DNA of 64,000 bases from the NCBI GenBank assembly GCA_024400635.1, contig JAKSMI010000004.1, forward strand, positions 22,340 to 86,339. Direction: 5' to 3'. Both the position numbers and the translations under genes were made by a program. The notes below the pieces were generated by a model. That model was not told the origin of the DNA, did not search any database, and was given only the letters and a program-made list of their open reading frames with translations. How positions within the stretch are numbered: position 1 is the first letter of the stretch; each line of letters begins with the position of its first letter. This document shows, in pieces, positions 49,279 through 58,601 of this stretch. The DNA is from Bacteroidales bacterium (GTDB taxonomy: Bacteria > Bacteroidota > Bacteroidia > Bacteroidales > WCHB1-69).

Positions 49279-49332
49279 GCTGCAATTTGTGTTTTATAAT
49301 GTACAATGGTTTGTTTTCCTGATTTTTTTTTC

Positions 49333-49367
49333 AATTCTTTCCAATATTTTAAAGATTGGAAAGAATT
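49333..49367. repeat. 35-bp palindromic element, copy 1 (aattctttccaat-N9-attggaaagaatt)
   Basis: 13-bp perfect arms. A near-identical copy lies at 50538-50572. Confidence 0.85.
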
Positions 49368-49436
49368 TTATTTAAAGACCTGCTCCACGTTCCTGCGGTT
49401 GCCGTCGATGGTGATTTGGATTTTATCCTGATTGAA
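49368..49436 (-). pseudogene. Fragment of an ndpA-like 3' region (left half of the split site)
   Basis: Reads FNQDKIQITIDGNRRNVEQ/VFK*. It matches RLDQKIQIIIDGNRENVEQ of the full gene up to the 9-bp core at 49379-49387, then diverges. Confidence 0.65.
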
Positions 49437-50288
49437 TCAAATGGCATCATCGTCTTTCGATTTCTTTTCGCCTTTCAGGGCTTTCTTTTCGTCGCTTTTC
49501 AAACGGCGTTCAACCTTTTTCACATCCTCAGCCGGTGGAAGATTTTCTGGCACGATTCCTCTTTCAATCAGCATTTTCCTAACGGCAAGATTGTTGTCAA
49601 CATGTTCCTTTTCAATGCTTTGCTCGCCCGACAAATCCTTAGCCTGAACATTGACGCTTGTCATTTCGGCTGCAAAATCCTTTGCCTTAATGCTGATTGT
49701 CGGTAGAAAATCGGCTATGGGACGACTATTTGGCACACCCATTTTTCTTTTCAGTTGCTGCGTGGTCAGATGGAACAAGGCTTGGTCGCCTTTCGAGCGG
49801 ATAATGGCAAATCCTTGGTCGTTCACACCTCTTTCATAAAGCACACCCGAAAGCTTCTTTTCCGTTTCCTGCAATTTTGCACGCGCTTTCACACGCTCCG
49901 CTTCCAACAGTCTCTGTTCCACAAGTTCAGCGCGGCGCGTCTGCACGGCAAAATAAGTCTGTGCAAATGCGATTTGCGGTTTCCGAGGGTCTCCGTTTTG
50001 TGCAATAAGATAGCAAGCGTAACGAGTCAGAAGGATGTCATCTATCTCATGCTGAGCACCTTTACCTGCTTCTATCACCTTGCTGACGTCAGCAAAGTGA
50101 TCCGATACTTTATTGCCAGCATTCCGGCATGATTCTTTTGCTTTGTCAACCGCATTCATAAAATTACGCCATTGCGAGTATCCCAAAATCGGATACAATT
50201 CTCTTGCGCTCCAACATTCCACGCCTTCCACCTCGGCCGCAGCCTGCTCAAACTGCTCAAACAACTGTTTTACTTCTTCTGTTTTCAT
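49437..50288 (-). CDS. dinD: DNA damage-inducible protein D
   Basis: [18 protein letters not shown]...[33 protein letters not shown] closely parallels E. coli DinD. ATG at 50288 (MKTEE) is conserved in the duplicated fragment; the track start at 50309 is GTG. Confidence 0.8.
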
Positions 50289-50367
50289 ATTTATTTTGAT
50301 TTGGTTCACATTTCTTGCCGGTAATACACCTTATAGAACTTGCCCCTTTCGTCCTCGCCCTGCTCCA
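50225..50367. repeat. 143-bp direct repeat, copy A (ndpA 3' end, spacer and the first 21 codons of dinD)
   Basis: Aligns with 52575-52717 at about 90 percent identity (about 14 mismatches by eye, mostly in the 17-nt spacer). Confidence 0.85.
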
Positions 50368-50524
50368 TCACATTGAATGGGCGAGGATAGCCATTGAAAT
50401 ACAGCCAATTCTGTTTAAGGAGGGGAACATCGCTGCTCAATTTTCCCCTAACGTCCGTTGTTATCGCCATCTTGGTAATATTGTATGATTGGTTCTGCAA
50501 AAATATCCAATGTTTTATCTTCAT
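50306..50524 (-). pseudogene. Chimeric ORF whose last 20 codons are an ndpA 3' end (right half of the split site)
   Basis: The C-terminus ([19 protein letters not shown]) equals the end of the full gene. The upstream 52 aa are unrelated. Confidence 0.6.
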
Positions 50525-50537
50525 TTTATTTCACTCC

Positions 50538-50572
50538 AATTCTTTCCAATGTTTTAAAGATTGGAAAGAATT
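50538..50572. repeat. 35-bp palindromic element, copy 2
   Basis: Has the same 13-bp arms as 49333-49367. The loop differs at one position. Confidence 0.85.
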
Positions 50573-50630
50573 TATGTGCTTTTCAATTTACAATTTATAA
50601 TGAACACTGTGCAATGGTTTGAGCTTACGA

Positions 50631-51356
50631 TTACCAATTTATATTGTTTTCCAACGCCTCAACGTATTTTTTGTACAGGCAGATGAAAATTTCGTCAATT
50701 AATATCAAAATGGCAAAACGAAAGAAATAATTATGATAGATGTAATCGGAACTTGCTAATGTATCAAGTGTTGGTAAGTTTTGTTGATATGATGTTAGGT
50801 TATGGGCACAACGGTTGCGGTGCTTATAAACAATTTCATCGTATGATTTATGTAGGTCGGATTGAAATAGTATGTAAGTATCTTTTTGTTTTTGTTTGAT
50901 CTGATTATCCTTTAATATTGTGTTGTTTGACTTAAAATATGAGAAACTTTCTTGTTGAGCGGCTCGTAACAGATTGGGATTGTCTAAAATATTAAGAACT
51001 ATATTTTTAACGTCCTTAACATTTGCTGTAATAACATCTATATCGAACTGGGGGATTCGTTTGATTAAATCTTTATATATGTTGTTCTTACTACAATAAT
51101 CAGAATGCTCTCCGTAATTCTTATTATTCAGATATTCATACCGATACTCATAATCATTCGTGGCCATTTCCCAGCATATACACTTCATTTTTTGCTCTTG
51201 CGCACCTGTCATTTTTAAGAAAACCGATTGCATAATGTAATCGCACAATGGATATGTTTCAATACCGCTTCCAATACCTCGGATGGCATTAACACTATCT
51301 TCCAAAATCTTTGAGAGAGGCGTTGTTATGAATTTATAATGCTGGCTCTTGTACAT
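50631..51356 (-). CDS. HEPN-like protein (R-x4-H motif)
   Basis: KHRNRCAHN (RNRCAH = R-x4-H) lies in an alpha-helical protein of 241 aa. ATG at 51356 overlaps the DUF262 stop by 23 nt; the track start at 51395 is TTG. Confidence 0.55.
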   Translation of the reverse strand: MYKSQHYKFITTPLSKILEDSVNAIRGIGSGIETYPLCDYIMQSVFLKMTGAQEQKMKCICWEMATNDYEYRYEYLNNKNYGEHSDYCSKNNIYKDLIKRIPQFDIDVITANVKDVKNIVLNILDNPNLLRAAQQESFSYFKSNNTILKDNQIKQKQKDTYILFQSDLHKSYDEIVYKHRNRCAHNLTSYQQNLPTLDTLASSDYIYHNYFFRFAILILIDEIFICLYKKYVEALENNINW

Positions 51357-52542
51357 AGTCTTTGTAGATATTGATTGATGCTTTGATTCTCTCAACAGTA
51401 TATTTTAGAGCGTTTGGTGCTCGCTTATGGGCCTCTGATTTAAAATTGGCATCATTGATTTTATTCTTAATAGCAGAATCGAGATCATCCTTGTTTGTAA
51501 TATCAATAGTTTTCCCCTTAATAATAACATAGTAAATCAACCCGAGTAAATACATGTCGGCATCAATGATTGTGTTAAAGTCCTTTGGTATTGATAAATT
51601 GTTTAACGCTGACCTTAGTGCGTCAAGTCTGCTCGTAATATCATTATCTGGATTAGGAAAAACAAATGTTATTGCTGGGAATTTTTGGTGGTCTTTTTTC
51701 TCTTCCACAATAGTTGTAATAAATTCAGAAAAATATTCTTCTCGTTTTCTGCCATAGCCATAAGCCACTTTTGTAGTATTGGGATCATTTAATTTACAAA
51801 AATCAAAAAGATATGCCAAATAACGCACAAAGTCAGGATTTTTAGGTTCTGAATTTTGCATAATTGTAATACTCTTAAGAACACCTGAATCCAATAATTT
51901 CGTGTACTTTCCATTTAGGAAATATAATGCTCGGCGGCTCTCCTCTGGTAGCAATACTTTTCCTAATGTATTGATGTGCTTAAAAATACGTGAATAATAT
52001 TTTTGTTGTTCGTTTTGGTCTGAAGTGTTAGATACGATATAAGAGAATCCTAAAAAAGTATCTTCCAAAACCTCATCAGAAATTGTCTCCGCTAGATCAT
52101 CATATCGGTCGTCAGTTGCTATCTTTTGTCTTATGTTTTCTATATTCTTGCCCATCCCTAACAATTCATCAAATCTCCATTCCAAAATAGTTTTGTCTTC
52201 ACCTTCCGAGTCCATTCCATCATCACCCTCAGCAAGAGAATTTTCTTTTAATTTGAATTTTCCTGCATTAGGATACTTTTTTATACAAGCAAGGAGAATA
52301 CTTGTTAGGCGTTGTTGCCCATCAATGATGTAATTGTGCGTTTTGCCATCGCTTGCGGTAAAAGCACCTATTGTAATAGGCGGGACAAAGTCTTTATCTC
52401 TCAAAGACTGAATTAGTTTTTTTATACTTTCCTGATTCCAACAAAACTTCCTTTGATAACGCGGTAATTCAATATTGCCACTCAACATTAAACCAATCCA
52501 ATGTTTTAGTGAGTATTCTCCATAATAAACTCTATTTTTCAT
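51334..52542 (-). CDS. DUF262 (ParB/Srx-like) protein without a DUF1524/HNH domain
   Basis: ELPRYQRKFCW and IIDGQQRLTS hallmark motifs. The C-terminal roughly 200 aa were not recognised and no H-N-H motif was seen. ATG at 52542; the track start at 52548 is TTG. Confidence 0.7.
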   Translation of the reverse strand: MKNRVYYGEYSLKHWIGLMLSGNIELPRYQRKFCWNQESIKKLIQSLRDKDFVPPITIGAFTASDGKTHNYIIDGQQRLTSILLACIKKYPNAGKFKLKENSLAEGDDGMDSEGEDKTILEWRFDELLGMGKNIENIRQKIATDDRYDDLAETISDEVLEDTFLGFSYIVSNTSDQNEQQKYYSRIFKHINTLGKVLLPEESRRALYFLNGKYTKLLDSGVLKSITIMQNSEPKNPDFVRYLAYLFDFCKLNDPNTTKVAYGYGRKREEYFSEFITTIVEEKKDHQKFPAITFVFPNPDNDITSRLDALRSALNNLSIPKDFNTIIDADMYLLGLIYYVIIKGKTIDITNKDDLDSAIKNKINDANFKSEAHKRAPNALKYTVERIKASINIYKDYVQEPAL

Positions 52543-52554
52543 ATTCAATCCTCC

Positions 52555-52638
52555 TTAATTATTCATTGTTAATTCTTCCACCTCGGCGGCGGCTTGTTCA
52601 AACTGCTCAAACAACTGTTTTATTTCTTCTGTTTTCAT
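52555..52638 (-). pseudogene. 5' fragment of a second dinD copy
   Basis: [21 protein letters not shown] matches the first 21 codons of dinD. Then comes the unrelated ELTMNN*. Confidence 0.75.
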
Positions 52639-52717
52639 ATTTATGCTGTCTTAATTTACATTTCCTGCTGGTAATACACCTTATAGAACTTGCCCCTTTC
52701 GTCCTCGCCCTGCTCCA
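52575..52717. repeat. 143-bp direct repeat, copy B
   Basis: See copy A at 50225-50367. Confidence 0.85.
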
Positions 52718-53696
52718 CGTTCTCGCGGTTGCCGTCGATGATGATTTGGATTTTCTGGTCCAATCGAATGACACGCTTGTAGCTGCGTTGTTGCTTCTTG
52801 CGTGCCGATTCAGAAATGGTAAATTGGTCATCAATGGCGATTTGGCTTTCTTCTTCGTATGCGCGCTTGTACAGATGGAATTTTTCAATCACCTCTGGCT
52901 GTTCGATGACTTCGTTGGCAAACTCCTCAATGTCGAAAGTGTCCTTTTCCTTGAAAAACTTTAATGACTTGTTAAGCAGGTCGATTTGGTCGGCTTTAGT
53001 TACCTCAAATTCGTTAGGCAGTTCCTTTGTGACAAAATCCTTTGCAAAAGTCATGAAATTCTGCGTGTTGGCGTATTCGTCTTTACGCTGGCGCACGTGC
53101 AGGAAATCGTCCACCCAATATTGCGCTTCAATGCCTTTGTTGGTATTATCAACTACCGCCACGACATAACCGTTTTCCTTTTCCTTATTGAAAATCAGGC
53201 AGCCTTTATCCAATTTCTTGATATTGATGCCTTTTTCGCTTTCCAAATTGAAACTGTTGTTTTCGTGCAGCACCTTGAGGAAAGTGTCTTTGTTTTCCGA
53301 CTTGAACAAGCCGACCGCATCCATTGTTTCGCCATCCAAAATGCAATCCTTGAAATAGACGGTATAAAACTCACCGCCTTTGATTTTCGGATGTGTGCTT
53401 TGTTCGTAAAGATGCTTTGCCAGATTCACCGACTGATCATATAGCGCATCGGGATTGTCGAAAATACGGGAAACGTAGGTGTAAACAGCGTTAAGTTCAA
53501 GCTCGCTTTCGTGAAAAAATTCGAAATATTCGTTGGTGGTGAAAGGTGAGATATAATATAATAATAAAAGGTCTTTTAATCTATCATCTATATTTACAAA
53601 TGTATTAGATAATATTATTCCATCATCCGCAACTTTATTTCCGACAAAATGTAATGTAACATTTTGAATTTTTGATTCCAAGAATATTGCACTCAT
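52656..53696 (-). CDS. Nucleoid-associated protein, NdpA/YejK (NA37) family-like
   Basis: 346 aa. The N-terminus (IQNVTLHFVGNK) and overall pattern fit my memory of Bacteroidota NA37-family proteins. Its start overlaps the upstream stop codon as ATGA. Confidence 0.6.
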   Translation of the reverse strand: MSAIFLESKIQNVTLHFVGNKVADDGIILSNTFVNIDDRLKDLLLLYYISPFTTNEYFEFFHESELELNAVYTYVSRIFDNPDALYDQSVNLAKHLYEQSTHPKIKGGEFYTVYFKDCILDGETMDAVGLFKSENKDTFLKVLHENNSFNLESEKGINIKKLDKGCLIFNKEKENGYVVAVVDNTNKGIEAQYWVDDFLHVRQRKDEYANTQNFMTFAKDFVTKELPNEFEVTKADQIDLLNKSLKFFKEKDTFDIEEFANEVIEQPEVIEKFHLYKRAYEEESQIAIDDQFTISESARKKQQRSYKRVIRLDQKIQIIIDGNRENVEQGEDERGKFYKVYYQQEM

Positions 53697-54832
53697 CGTT
53701 TTTGCTGTTTTAAGTATTCCAAAAAGTTGTTATATACAACATTTTTTTGTCTATCCATCTCTGAAAGCAATTTTGATTTCAGTTTGTTTTTATCAGTTGT
53801 GCTTAGTCTTTTTTCTGAACTTAATTGTGAAATATTCATTTCAAATTCAGCATTACCAAATTTGTTAGGATAATCCGGAAAGCCTAAACTGATAGTAAAT
53901 TTACCTTTTTCTCCCCTGTAATTATATGAAAATACGGCATCCATATTCCATAGAATAATGGAATTATGATATTTGGTATCTTTCATAAAAAACTTATCAT
54001 TCAATGATTCTCCAGACAACAGAATCTTTTTCATTTTATCCATCCAAATAATTTCTTCAGGAAGGGCTGAATTATCATCCGGTTTGATTGAAATATCCTT
54101 TATGTTTTCGCAAGTAAAGTTGTCATTTTCTAAATGAGTTGTCAACCGGTAAAAAAACGCGAATCTCTCATTATTTGAAAATTCAGAAAAAATAATTTTC
54201 TTTAGTTTTGCATCTTGCGCAACAATTCCTTTCTCTTTAAATTTTTGAATTTGTTGTTTAATAATTTGTTCTGCAATCTCTTTCGTTTCTGGCGCAGTAT
54301 GAGTTATTTTAATATGTCCCTTACCATTCTCATTAATAATTTCGACTTTCCCTGGAAATTCATTTTTCTGCTCATACCATGATTTATTTCTATCATAGCG
54401 AATAATTGTAAAGTCAGCAATTAAGTGTTCTGGATTGTTGTCAACTTTCGTAAAACGAGTTGGATACTTTAATTCACAAGAAGGCAAGTTTTTCTTTAAG
54501 AAATCATTAATATCAACATTATTACAATCAGGGTGAAACAATGTTGCATTTGGATTAAATTCTATTTCTCTTGAAAACTTTTTTTCATTATCTTCTCTCT
54601 CAGATAACGACAATCTCACTTCTTCAAATTCTTTGGGCGACAATAAAAGTGTTTGCAGAATAGGTACGGTGTATGATTTGTCGTTATTAAGTGCAAATAC
54701 TCCACGTTCTTTTAATATCCGGTGTATTTCCGCATTAGAAATAGAACTCTGGTTAACAAAACCTCGGAGCATTTCTCCAAAAGGCAACATCTTATCAATA
54801 TCGTTTTGACTTACATTCATATTAATACACAT
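53693..54832 (-). CDS. Hypothetical protein, 379 aa, no recognisable domain
   Basis: A long ORF, AT-rich and Lys/Asn-rich. ATG at 54832 overlaps the upstream gene by 11 nt; the alternative ATG at 54820 lies 1 nt after its stop. Confidence 0.6.
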   Translation of the reverse strand: MCINMNVSQNDIDKMLPFGEMLRGFVNQSSISNAEIHRILKERGVFALNNDKSYTVPILQTLLLSPKEFEEVRLSLSEREDNEKKFSREIEFNPNATLFHPDCNNVDINDFLKKNLPSCELKYPTRFTKVDNNPEHLIADFTIIRYDRNKSWYEQKNEFPGKVEIINENGKGHIKITHTAPETKEIAEQIIKQQIQKFKEKGIVAQDAKLKKIIFSEFSNNERFAFFYRLTTHLENDNFTCENIKDISIKPDDNSALPEEIIWMDKMKKILLSGESLNDKFFMKDTKYHNSIILWNMDAVFSYNYRGEKGKFTISLGFPDYPNKFGNAEFEMNISQLSSEKRLSTTDKNKLKSKLLSEMDRQKNVVYNNFLEYLKQQKR

Positions 54833-55754
54833 TTAAAAGATTTCTGTAATTCTCCACGGTAACAGTTTTTGTAAATTCATTATCCTGAAAACCTTGTTTC
54901 GATTCTGCTACAATGTTTTTATGCAACAAATTATTATAATCTGGGAAAGCTATAATCACATCTCCTACCCAATTTGATGATATATCTTTTGCTAGTCCCA
55001 TTAAACGTTTCAGGTCTGCGGCTTCAAAATTATCTATACTTGCCAATAACAAAGCTATTTCTTTTTCGTTGCTCTTTTTCATCAACTTTATTGGAATGAT
55101 ACTTGAATTCAGATATTCAACAGGAAGGATTGAGCCTGTATTATTCCTGTTTTGTGGATTTAAATTTTGACCTGTTGCTGGATAATAAAAGAAATAGTTA
55201 TATTCTGTTTTTGATTTGATATAACTCATCACTTCTAAGATAAAACCAACTCGTTTGTTATCCATGATATAAATAGTATTATTCTTGAAAGAATCAATTC
55301 GTACAGTTGACACTGCATTAATTAAATCATCATAACCATCTTCGCTATTATTCAACCAAAATAGTACTCCAACATCATTAATTGTTGTTGGATGAAAGTT
55401 GGGTATTATTGAATCTTTTTGCGGAGAACAATCAAAACATTCAATAGTGTTAATTAAGTCCAGCATATACTTTTTAAAAGTACTTTGTGGACTATTGGGA
55501 TATTTATCATTACTATATTTTGATGATATTACGATATTGTTTAATTGTCCATCAACAAGAGGATTCATGTAGGAATATAAGAAATCTATCCCATGTGTTC
55601 TTGCTGGTTCTCCTTTAGAATTTAAATGTTCCCCATTCTGTTGAGAGCAATCAATTTGAATTCCTTTTGCCAAATCTGACCATCCTATTACGGATAAGAA
55701 TCTTTCGACGACAGATTCTCCGTATTCTCCTATTTTTTTAGACCATTCACCCAT
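54822..55754 (-). CDS. Hypothetical protein, 310 aa, possible PD-(D/E)xK-like N-terminal core
   Basis: GEYGESVVERFLSVIGW...HGIDFLYS...NIVISSKY resembles a nuclease-fold G-x-x-GE ... D ... (E/S)xK arrangement. This is weak evidence, read by eye only. Confidence 0.55.
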   Translation of the reverse strand: MGEWSKKIGEYGESVVERFLSVIGWSDLAKGIQIDCSQQNGEHLNSKGEPARTHGIDFLYSYMNPLVDGQLNNIVISSKYSNDKYPNSPQSTFKKYMLDLINTIECFDCSPQKDSIIPNFHPTTINDVGVLFWLNNSEDGYDDLINAVSTVRIDSFKNNTIYIMDNKRVGFILEVMSYIKSKTEYNYFFYYPATGQNLNPQNRNNTGSILPVEYLNSSIIPIKLMKKSNEKEIALLLASIDNFEAADLKRLMGLAKDISSNWVGDVIIAFPDYNNLLHKNIVAESKQGFQDNEFTKTVTVENYRNLLNVY

Positions 55755-55795: not shown

Positions 55796-58237
55796 TTATT
55801 TCCCAATTCTTTCCACATACCTTTTCAGCATCTCCATTTCCTTGCGTTTCATATAGTTTTCCATGAAAACATAGTCCGGCTCGCCTTTGGAATTTACTGG
55901 AAGCATGATAGTAAACGAATTTAAGCGATTTGAATTTATTGAATGTCCGTGCCCGAAAAACTCTTCTTGCATGGAAATGCAACGAGACAAAAACACCTGT
56001 ATGTGCTTTGACAGTTCTTGTTTAGGATACAAAGCCGTAACATGACTATCTAACGCAAAATCAAATGGCTGGTAGTAGGCTAAACCTGCACCACCGTCAC
56101 CATCATTGTTGAGAGTGACACAATGTCCCTGATACAAATTTTGTGTCTCAACAAAAGACCTCAAACCATTATTCACTTTTCTTGCAGAAACCAAAGGCAC
56201 ATCTCCATCTTGCAAAGAATTCATATCTGTTTGATTTCCTTTATTCGGAGTGAACAATTTTATTAATCTAAAAGGTTTCCATTCTTTATTATCAATTCGT
56301 TCTATTTTCGGCAATTCACCAATTCGTTCCCTTCTTTCTGAATTATCAAACAAATACCCGCGTCCGTGGGCAATCATGTTAAACTCAAAAGTGAGGTAGT
56401 CGGCCATTGTCTTTTCAAAGTCGGCTTCGGTCGGGATGTCCTCGTTGAAATAATAGAACGAATGCAGCCATTCATCTTCGGCTTCAACGGTGGAAGTCAC
56501 CATGAAGTCGTTGGTGGTATGCCTGCCCATCAGCCAACATTCCAACAAAAGTTTCTTGCGCTCCTTGGCTTGCTCGGTCGGCAGCAGCCCCAAATGCGGA
56601 AACACCACAAAGCCGTCATCCTTAAAGTTAATGAACTTACTGTATTTGTTTTTCGGGTGCGGACGATGAGCGGTGAAAACGGCAATCACGGGATTGGTGC
56701 CAACGCCGTAGAAAGTCTGAGGATTCAAGGTTATCACGCCTTCCAAAGTATGGTTTTCCAGAATATAGCGTTTGTCGATTTTGTCTTCCTTGGTTTTACC
56801 TACCATAGTGCTTTGTGGCACAATCACCACGCAACGTGCGCCATCGGCCAACGAATCAAGCAAATGGCAGATGAATTTCAATTCCGTAAGTTCGGCTGTC
56901 GTTTTGTTTTTGCCTTGCGAATAAGGCGGATTCATGAAACCGACGGTGAAGTTTTTCTTTCGCAGTTCCTCGGCTGGCTGTTTCAGAAAATCGGCACAAA
57001 TCAGATTGCTTTTTCCATCGCCGCGCAAAATCATGTTGGTTGTGGCAATCGAAAACATATCGTCACGCAACTCAATGCCATGCAAACGCTCTTTCTTTAT
57101 GGTGTGCTGTTCGTCGCGGCTCGCATTTTTCAACATTCGGTGCATGGCCGAAATCAGGAAGCCGCCCGTGCCGCAACAAGGGTCAAAGACTTTGTCGGTC
57201 GGTTTCAAATCGGCTAAATCGACAAAAAGCTCCGTAATGTGTTTCGGTGTCAGCACAACGCCCAATGTCTGTCCGTCGCCACCACTGTAACGGATAAACT
57301 CGCCATAGAAACGCCCCAAGACATCTTCAGGCGAATTGTTGCAAATGGCGGTGAGGATATTAGAATAAAGATATTCAGCAAAATAACGCAATGGTGACTT
57401 GCCCAATTTGGAACTGAACTCCGATAAATGCGGACGGTTTTTTATCAGTCGGAACTGGTCGAGAACCTTTTCCTTTTTCACTTGCGGCTGAACGTGAACG
57501 CTGTCCATGTGTTTTGAAAGGGCATCAAAAATTTTGTCGCCGTCAGTCTCTCCGTTTTCCCGCGAAGCGGTCAGTTGCTCAGTGTCGAAATTCTGTTCCT
57601 GCAAGGCAAGCAAGATGGCAGACACCACCAAAGGTTTTTCCGAATCGCCCAACTGTCCGTAATTGCGCAAATCCTCATGCAGTTGTCCGGCACGTTTCAG
57701 AATCACTTCCAATTCCGCCTGTTCCACAGTCTTGCTGCCCAAGACCTCAGTGCGATAATAATTGGTGATTTTTTCAGCCGTAAAATTCTCAAAACTCTTT
57801 ACTTTTTTGAGAATCTGATAGCCGTTCTCACTCACGAAAATAGGACGAATGATGATTCTTTCATCCTGCGTGCCCGAACAGCCAAAGGCAAAGACCTTTT
57901 TGAAATGCGTCTTTTCAATGATGTTCAGGGCATAATGCAAGGCACCGTTTTCTGCATAGTTAGTCACGCTTGATGTGTCCATTAGAAGCGTGTCCTCTCT
58001 TTCGTTCATGTATTTTGCCTGCTTCGTCTGGTCGGCCTTATCCTCGATGACGATGATAAACTCGCCAGATTGAGCGACAAATTCAGGGAATCCGGTTTTG
58101 CCCGTTCCTCGTTTCGAAGACGTTTTGAGGGCTTCATTGATTTCCTCAATCTGGCTGCCATTCATCGTAAAATCGAGGCCAGCCTTTGTGAGCAATTGCG
58201 CCACAATGAAATCGGTTTTCTTCTCGTAGTCAGTCAT
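55796..58237 (-). CDS. Single-chain restriction-modification enzyme, Type IIG/IIB-like (nuclease-like N-domain + N6-adenine methyltransferase + HsdS-like TRD)
   Basis: The N-terminus (GFPEFVAQSGEFIIVIEDKAD) has a PE...ExK pattern. FDPCCGTGGF is SAM motif I and FMNPPY is motif IV. The C-terminal roughly 190 aa look like a TRD. ATG at 58237; the track start at 58240 is GTG. Confidence 0.7.
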   Translation of the reverse strand: MTDYEKKTDFIVAQLLTKAGLDFTMNGSQIEEINEALKTSSKRGTGKTGFPEFVAQSGEFIIVIEDKADQTKQAKYMNEREDTLLMDTSSVTNYAENGALHYALNIIEKTHFKKVFAFGCSGTQDERIIIRPIFVSENGYQILKKVKSFENFTAEKITNYYRTEVLGSKTVEQAELEVILKRAGQLHEDLRNYGQLGDSEKPLVVSAILLALQEQNFDTEQLTASRENGETDGDKIFDALSKHMDSVHVQPQVKKEKVLDQFRLIKNRPHLSEFSSKLGKSPLRYFAEYLYSNILTAICNNSPEDVLGRFYGEFIRYSGGDGQTLGVVLTPKHITELFVDLADLKPTDKVFDPCCGTGGFLISAMHRMLKNASRDEQHTIKKERLHGIELRDDMFSIATTNMILRGDGKSNLICADFLKQPAEELRKKNFTVGFMNPPYSQGKNKTTAELTELKFICHLLDSLADGARCVVIVPQSTMVGKTKEDKIDKRYILENHTLEGVITLNPQTFYGVGTNPVIAVFTAHRPHPKNKYSKFINFKDDGFVVFPHLGLLPTEQAKERKKLLLECWLMGRHTTNDFMVTSTVEAEDEWLHSFYYFNEDIPTEADFEKTMADYLTFEFNMIAHGRGYLFDNSERRERIGELPKIERIDNKEWKPFRLIKLFTPNKGNQTDMNSLQDGDVPLVSARKVNNGLRSFVETQNLYQGHCVTLNNDGDGGAGLAYYQPFDFALDSHVTALYPKQELSKHIQVFLSRCISMQEEFFGHGHSINSNRLNSFTIMLPVNSKGEPDYVFMENYMKRKEMEMLKRYVERIGK

Positions 58238-58601
58238 CACTTTACCTTATTATCTATGTTTCAATCTTACAAAACGTCAGCGGCATAAAACCCGCTTAAA
58301 TATTTTGATTATTTTCGTTTAAAAAGTTGCGTATATCATTGATTACAAGTGCTTTTTTTAGTGCATAAAACCAAACGACCAACAGTCTCTAACACGCGCA
58401 ACTTGGCTGCAAAGTTCGCAAAATTTCCTGACATCTGTAAGAGATTCTCTAAAAAATTATCAACAGGCATGGGATATAAGTTGCCGGTCGGTTTTAAAAC
58501 TTGTGAAAGTTAAAATTTTTCTTTACATTTTACGTGATATATTATTTTTATTTCTATTTTTTCAGTCAAATTAACAATTACATATTCAGTTAATGAAAAC
58601 C

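Follow-up and report, generated by a model that had tools for sequence, protein, structure and literature searches.

The 64,000-nucleotide (nt) stretch of Bacteroidales contig JAKSMI010000004.1 analyzed here (hereafter the window; all coordinates are positions in it) carries two overlapping genes on its minus strand, a DUF262 protein gene (gene A) and a smaller partner (gene B) that, as read from its sequence, probably encodes an HEPN-type RNase effector of an unnamed family. Both open reading frames (ORFs) are confirmed, with gene A at 51334-52542 (402 amino acids [aa] from its ATG, or 404 aa from a TTG at 52548) and gene B at 50631-51356 (241 aa from its ATG, or 254 aa from a TTG at 51395). 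The ATG starts are supported for both genes, since homologues begin with MYxSxH and MxNRVYYG at positions matching these codons. A Shine-Dalgarno-like AAGGAGG, read from the sequence, lies at 52550-52556 on the minus strand, 7 nt 5' of the gene A ATG. As an earlier reading made from the letters alone (the sequence-only reading) had stated, the two genes overlap by 23 nt; gene A ends and gene B begins within 51334-51356 on this strand, and this overlap suggests translational coupling. Scanning the pair region for sigma-70 promoters and terminators was uninformative and revealed no convincing promoter.

Pairing was counted in species-representative genomes, in which 77 gene B loci had enough upstream DNA. 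We observe a full-length gene A homologue directly upstream of gene B in 76 of these 77 loci (E 1e-61 to 1e-201), with the gene A end mostly overlapping the gene B start by ~4-17 nt on estimated boundaries. A further 16 of 16 metagenome and genome loci show the overlapping pair (3 gene B homologues on 11 contigs and 3 gene A homologues on 5), in surroundings unrelated to each other. Clustered at 90% identity, the gene B family comprises 1602 clusters; at 50% identity, 492 representatives are found with E <= 1e-3, 285 of them below 1e-30. Because the family is this large and the pairing holds at nearly every locus, the pair is an obligate two-gene module and not a product of chance ORFs.

The pair occurs in genera of several phyla. 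Record titles name Segatella copri, Phocaeicola, Prevotella, Pedobacter, Flavobacterium, Capnocytophaga, and Mucilaginibacter among Bacteroidota hosts, and Streptococcus oralis, Gilliamella, Desulfobulbus, Nodosilinea, and Saccharospirillum among the others, while metagenome-assembled genomes (MAGs) with the pair are labeled Campylobacter, Lachnospiraceae, Ignavibacteria, and Lentisphaerae. At a finer scale the distribution is patchy: among 61 related genomes, the pair is present in 2, the window's own and one other, and it was not found in 9 other species of the window's genus. Neighbors at other loci include a cyclic oligonucleotide-based antiphage signaling system (CBASS; SMODS plus SAVED), type I restriction-modification (RM) genes, Abi_C, and a 1957-aa STAND-like NTPase, as well as mobile DNA in the form of tyrosine integrases, IS66 insertion sequence fragments, and a conjugative element. 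This is a distribution of the accessory, defense-island type, and the pairing that the sequence-only reading had pointed to is conserved and found in defense contexts.

The DUF262 protein (gene A)

Gene A carries both motifs attributed to it, YQR..W within PRYQRKFCW (residues 27-35) and DGQQR (residues 74-78) within IIDGQQRLTS (residues 72-81), with DGQQR kept in 72 of 76 homologues. GmrSD_N is its sole Pfam domain (residues 24-210, E 6.5e-23), neither DUF1524 nor HNH matches in Pfam at E <= 0.01, and no His-Me-type motif is present among the invariant columns of the gene A homologues, in line with the earlier claim that this DUF262 protein lacks the usual partner domain.

With respect to the C-terminal half, which had been called unrecognized, we observe homology to the helical extension of NsnA/PD-T4-2_A-type proteins. 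The best PADLOC match of gene A is NsnA, the Menshen sensor (E 5.9e-16, residues 21-374 against profile positions 60-359 of 385), and an hhalign comparison of a 34-homologue gene A profile with Bacteroidota PD-T4-2_A-like proteins (98.6% probability, E 5.7e-16) spans residues 9-281, reaching well past the Pfam domain. The AlphaFold2 (AF2) model, with a predicted local distance difference test (pLDDT) score of 80.5, has a ParB/Srx-like N-terminal half and is nearly all helix over residues 238-394; Foldseek places BrxU first (E 1.1e-3), with ParB-N domains and sulfiredoxin also matched and no His-Me nuclease among the matches. NsnA itself has been described as ParB-DUF262 followed by a helical DNA-binding "ParBDB" domain that GmrSD and SspE also contain, in their central part (Li et al. 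2025, PMC12065111). Since the NsnA match extends to residue 374 and the hhalign alignment to residue 281, and since the model is helical there and matches no His-Me fold, the C-terminal half of gene A is most likely a ParBDB-type helical DNA-binding extension as in NsnA/PD-T4-2_A-type proteins, and most likely neither a new domain nor a degenerate DUF1524. By sequence comparison, gene A is homologous to PD-T4-2_A-like proteins yet falls in a separate clade.

The partner protein (gene B)

Gene B matched no model of Pfam (searched up to E = 10), NCBIfam, PADLOC, or PHROGs, and a profile search of 1.84 billion representatives yielded, among the 150 matches listed, core members of the gene B family throughout and no bridge to named families. 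Its most conspicuous feature is HRNRCAHN at residues 179-186, which contains the RNRCAH (residues 180-185) highlighted by the sequence-only reading; RNR[C/I/V/L/S/T]AHN is present in 75 of 80 gene B loci. No variation is seen among 72 homologues of many genera at R180, N181, A184, H185, N186, Q191, and D221, nor at G51, E54, Q55, K56, K58, W62, R72, S85, and K90, and the N-terminal invariant block reads TGxxEQKxKCxCW...D..YR. The AF2 model (pLDDT 80.8, predicted template modeling [pTM] score 0.84) is all-helical, as had been supposed. In it, helix 166-185 carries the motif at its C-terminal end, and a loop modeled with low confidence leads from there to a long closing helix (210-237). The region at ~100-165, ahead of the motif helix, is hypervariable, and relatives have inserts there that reach ~70 residues.

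We consider it likely that gene B is a divergent member of the HEPN superfamily. The Rx4-6H motif of that superfamily (typically R-[NHDQ]-x-x-x-H) is present as RNRCAH, which agrees with the consensus RNx[I/C]AH shared by the reference HEPNs that we retrieved from the Abi2, RiboL-PSP, and MAE_28990 families, and the predicted model has the HEPN layout described by Anantharaman et al. 2013 (PMC3710099), with the motif at a helix end, a loop, a final helix, and a variable insert before the motif. Furthermore, Pfam scans of gene B relatives return Abi_2 (3/33 and 6/145, best E 3.4e-5) and HEPN_MAE_28990 (2/145 and 5/72, best E 1.9e-4), amounting to 16 of 250 member scans over three sets that may share members. 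Other Pfam families matched by at least two relatives are zf-C3HC, RPA_interact_C, and DUF6711 (in a scan at E <= 1) and GOLD_2 (3/72), none of which recurs across sets; only the two HEPN families do. One Abi_2 match covers residues 40-186 (147 residues, against profile positions 44-180 of 184) and therefore involves more than the motif alone. In hhalign comparisons with small Abi_2 and RiboL-PSP alignments, RNRCAH falls on their RNxxAH motif both times.

Several results weigh against this assignment, and against the kinship with PD-T4-2 discussed below. These hhalign alignments are local (16-31 columns) and of 3-5% probability, consistent with the assignment and not significant. The Abi_2 match that we inspected scores 20.1 bits against a gathering cut-off of 25.6, all scored HEPN matches are sub-threshold, and the window's own gene B protein receives no HEPN Pfam match. 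A Foldseek search of the gene B model against PDB and BFVD returned no significant HEPN or other fold (best E > 1), a profile of the family found no relative among PDB sequences, only spurious I-OnuI matches, and no PADLOC model recognizes gene B. For gene A, the PADLOC PD-T4-2_A model covers just the N-terminal motif (residues 29-85, E 6.8e-8). The silence of PADLOC PD-T4-2_B on gene B is not diagnostic, because bona fide RiboL-PSP HEPN partners likewise escape that model. The HEPN assignment made by the sequence-only reading is thus kept as the best reading of gene B, with sub-threshold sequence support and with a fold that Foldseek did not confirm.

The missing Foldseek match to HEPN structures and the sub-threshold HEPN profile matches would also fit a gene B that is a helical adaptor or specificity subunit and not a nuclease, with the DUF262 protein acting by ParB-type DNA clamping, silencing, or nicking and the RNxxAHN motif serving in binding. 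ParB-fold domains have been treated as possible DNases (PMC3710099), and the central insert, hypervariable and up to ~70 residues longer in relatives, is what a specificity module might have. We regard this alternative as unlikely, given that R, N, A, H, and N are invariant in the exact HEPN consensus across phyla, that the motif lies at the place expected for HEPN helix 3, and that at other loci the position of gene B, next to a homologous DUF262 gene, is taken by a bona fide HEPN.

Comparison with known defense systems

The coupling of a DUF262/ParB sensor to a separate HEPN effector is an already published and validated concept and is not new here. RiboL-PSP-HEPN and MAE_28990 HEPNs have been listed as "in operon with ParB" (Anantharaman et al. 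2013, PMC3710099), and PD-T4-2 of Escherichia coli ECOR65, annotated "DUF262, HEPN" (Vassallo et al. 2022, Table S1), has been validated against T4, also by deletion in the native strain ECOR65 (Vassallo et al. 2022). PD-T4-2 has further been placed under both DUF262 and PF18735 (Mariano and Blower 2023), and, together with Dazbog and Menshen, it belongs to the DUF262 systems without DUF1524, which have been described as largely uncharacterized (Li et al. 2025, PMC12065111). The proposal of the sequence-only reading that a HEPN RNase replaces the DNase effector is upheld insofar as DUF1524 is absent and gene B is best read as HEPN-type; the idea itself was already known from Anantharaman et al. 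(2013) and PD-T4-2. Another E. coli system that has been validated, PD-lambda-5, carries the annotation "ParB/HEPN, ..." (Vassallo 2022 Table S1), so that experimentally confirmed systems show ParB-HEPN coupling more than once.

Within Bacteroidota genomes, we observe that bona fide RiboL-PSP/MAE_28990 HEPN genes follow ~365-aa DUF262 genes, in the same slot that gene B occupies, and that these DUF262 proteins match PADLOC PD-T4-2_A at 1e-37 to 6e-60. Another DUF262-HEPN variant was seen in Bacteroidota at locus L030 (G155:C4, positions 59-2349), where a 414-aa DUF262 protein with DGQQR precedes a 347-aa HEPN with RNDCAH that matches RiboL-PSP/MAE_28990 and bears an extra ~130-aa beta-rich C-terminal extension.

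The pair in the window resembles PD-T4-2 in the order of its two-gene operon, where a DUF262 protein of ~360-400 aa without DUF1524 is encoded first and a small, probably HEPN-type protein directly after it, and in its occurrence in defense islands or mobile DNA. Gene B fits PD-T4-2_B in position and overlap, but neither PF18735 nor PF18737 nor any PADLOC model recognizes it, its length is 241 aa compared to the ~150 aa estimated for PD-T4-2_B (both PD-T4-2 ORFs together span 1540 nt), and it is set apart by an invariant N-terminal block (TGxxEQKxKCxCW) and a hypervariable insert. The pair is accordingly a separate branch of the PD-T4-2 theme, with a distinct gene A clade and a gene B family that has no model in the libraries searched; the architecture is already catalogued, as PD-T4-2, whereas this protein family is not. 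What is new here is an abundant DUF262 plus HEPN-like family pair that extends over several phyla and is missed by the annotation and defense-finder models searched. The ParB-HEPN operons of Anantharaman 2013 (Abi2/AbiD/AbiF clade) are similar in having an RNxxAH HEPN gene beside a ParB/DUF262 gene, and the weak matches of gene B relatives fall on exactly Abi_2 and MAE_28990; the gene B family nevertheless stays under all of those Pfam thresholds and is a clade of its own, with tight conservation.

Menshen (NsnABC) shares with the pair the ParB-DUF262 plus ParBDB architecture of its sensor (PMC12065111), which gene A matches over nearly its full length. The NsnA score of gene A (5.9e-16) is, however, far weaker than the 1e-63 to 1e-82 of the PD-T4-2_A/NsnA-like proteins checked, and gene A is followed in 76/77 loci by gene B, without the NsnB ABC ATPase and NsnC (inPIN plus effector). 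In the window, the 241-aa gene B comes directly after gene A and is followed by a hairpin and dinD, and no NsnB-type ATPase gene was seen in the pair loci examined. We rejected Menshen as an identity for the pair on the absence of NsnB and NsnC. A GmrSD-type enzyme was rejected as well, as DUF1524 is absent: GmrSD, BrxU, and SspE have in common with gene A an N-terminal DUF262 NTPase domain with DGQQR, and BrxU is the top Foldseek match, but the pair has no DUF1524 His-Me domain and its effector would be a separate, probably RNA-directed protein.

Proposed mechanism

The evidence leans toward the pair being a self-contained, horizontally mobile two-gene anti-phage (conflict) module of PD-T4-2 architecture. 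Under such a model, the gene A protein would bind DNA via its ParB-DUF262 and helical domains and hydrolyze nucleoside triphosphate (NTP), acting as a sensor of invading, possibly modified, DNA. Recognition would lead to an NTP-driven conformational switch in the gene A protein that releases or activates the gene B protein, whose RNxxAHN motif (R180/H185) would serve as the RNase site, probably within a dimer like those of other HEPNs. Cleavage of cellular and/or phage RNA by gene B would then stop phage production, with growth arrest or abortive infection as the predicted outcome. We put forward more tentatively, as a possibility just short of even, that the pair is a distinct defense system and not a mere PD-T4-2 homologue, in which a dedicated DUF262/ParBDB clade gates an undescribed HEPN family and the insert of gene B serves as a fast-evolving specificity or sensor-docking module.

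The tight overlap, with the gene of a putative neutralizer first, is also the arrangement of a toxin-antitoxin or addiction module, in which gene B would be a constitutive toxin restrained by the DUF262 protein, the pair would stabilize mobile DNA, and phage defense would be incidental. The pair is indeed often located on integrative or conjugative elements and beside insertion sequence fragments, and an NTPase-as-antitoxin logic has been proposed for ParA-HEPN dyads (Anantharaman 2013). We nevertheless find this explanation improbable, since the DUF262 domain is a nucleic-acid sensor in GmrSD, SspE, and BrxU (PMC12065111, PMC10952713), the architecture-equivalent PD-T4-2 protects its native strain from phage, and the pair is embedded in a defense island in the window.

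Genomic context and cassette boundaries

In the window, the pair sits between NA37 and dinD. Upstream of it lie a type IIG RM fusion (55796-58240), GapS4a (54822-55754) and GapS4b (53693-54832), the latter two identified by NCBIfam antiphage models at E ~1e-108, and, after GapS4b, the gene for an NA37/YejK-like nucleoid-associated protein (52656-53696); downstream are DinD (PADLOC PDC-S13) and a NERD protein. The GC content is 0.30-0.36 over 50500-52500. The sequence-only reading had described both genes as AT-rich compared with their flanks, and this holds against the dinD side (0.44-0.48) and the NA37 side (0.41-0.42) but not against the GAPS4 genes further upstream, which are just as AT-rich as the pair (0.28-0.32).

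Two 143-nt direct repeats on the minus strand, 90% identical, flank a ~2.2-kb cassette at 50368-52574. The upstream copy (52575-52717) consists of the last 19 NA37 codons, a spacer, and the first ~21 dinD codons, leaving a truncated dinD' ORF of 27 codons that ends in the Shine-Dalgarno sequence of gene A, and in the downstream copy (50225-50367) an NA37 3' remnant is fused to the intact dinD start. Because these repeats duplicate the NA37-3'/dinD-5' junction on both sides of it, the pair is a discrete ~2.2-kb insertion, and the repeats look as if recombination at the 3' end of NA37 had inserted or exchanged a cassette. A near-identical empty site, with NA37 and dinD and no cassette, was not found among 40 relatives; the NA37 homologues in relatives have ~65-71% DNA identity and belong to other genera of the family, with none in 9 other species of the genus.

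A 37-nt palindrome (hairpin) at 50537-50573 on the minus strand, 58 nt 3' of the gene B stop, has a second copy after dinD (49332-49368) and possibly acts as a terminator or marks the edge of a cassette. In addition, a 46-nt piece of NA37 3' coding sequence (52709-52754) reappears just 3' of dinD (49379-49424, 93% identical). It seems that the units 3' of NA37 are modular cassettes with a hairpin and an NA37-3' remnant at the end of each. A 72-aa ORF at 50306-50524, with a C-terminus made of the duplicated NA37 tail and a remainder made of cassette-end spacer, is probably no real gene.

That the pair is merely the tail of the upstream RM-GAPS4-NA37 operon, working only with those genes, is highly improbable: it would agree with the shared strand, with the truncated 27-codon dinD' as the only ORF between NA37 and gene A, and with the lack of a convincing promoter, but the pair recurs in 76/77 loci, those with listed neighbors lacking GAPS4 and NA37, the 143-nt repeats mark it as a discrete insertion, and gene A has its own strong Shine-Dalgarno sequence. 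Dependence on the upstream GAPS4 operon in particular is effectively excluded by the recurrence of the pair in loci that lack GAPS4.

Implications

Since the ParB/DUF262 plus HEPN principle has been published and validated, a specialist would not be very surprised by the pair. Gut Bacteroidales (Segatella, Phocaeicola, Prevotella) carry the pair family in abundance, yet it would be missed by PADLOC 2.0, and the partner has no Pfam or NCBIfam model, so that defining the family would close an annotation gap. In addition, the pair would offer a compact two-protein model of a ParB-type NTPase sensor controlling an RNase. If the pair is indeed a distinct system, its ParB-type NTPase would link the sensing of DNA to the cleavage of RNA by way of a new effector family, one overlooked by current defense finders.

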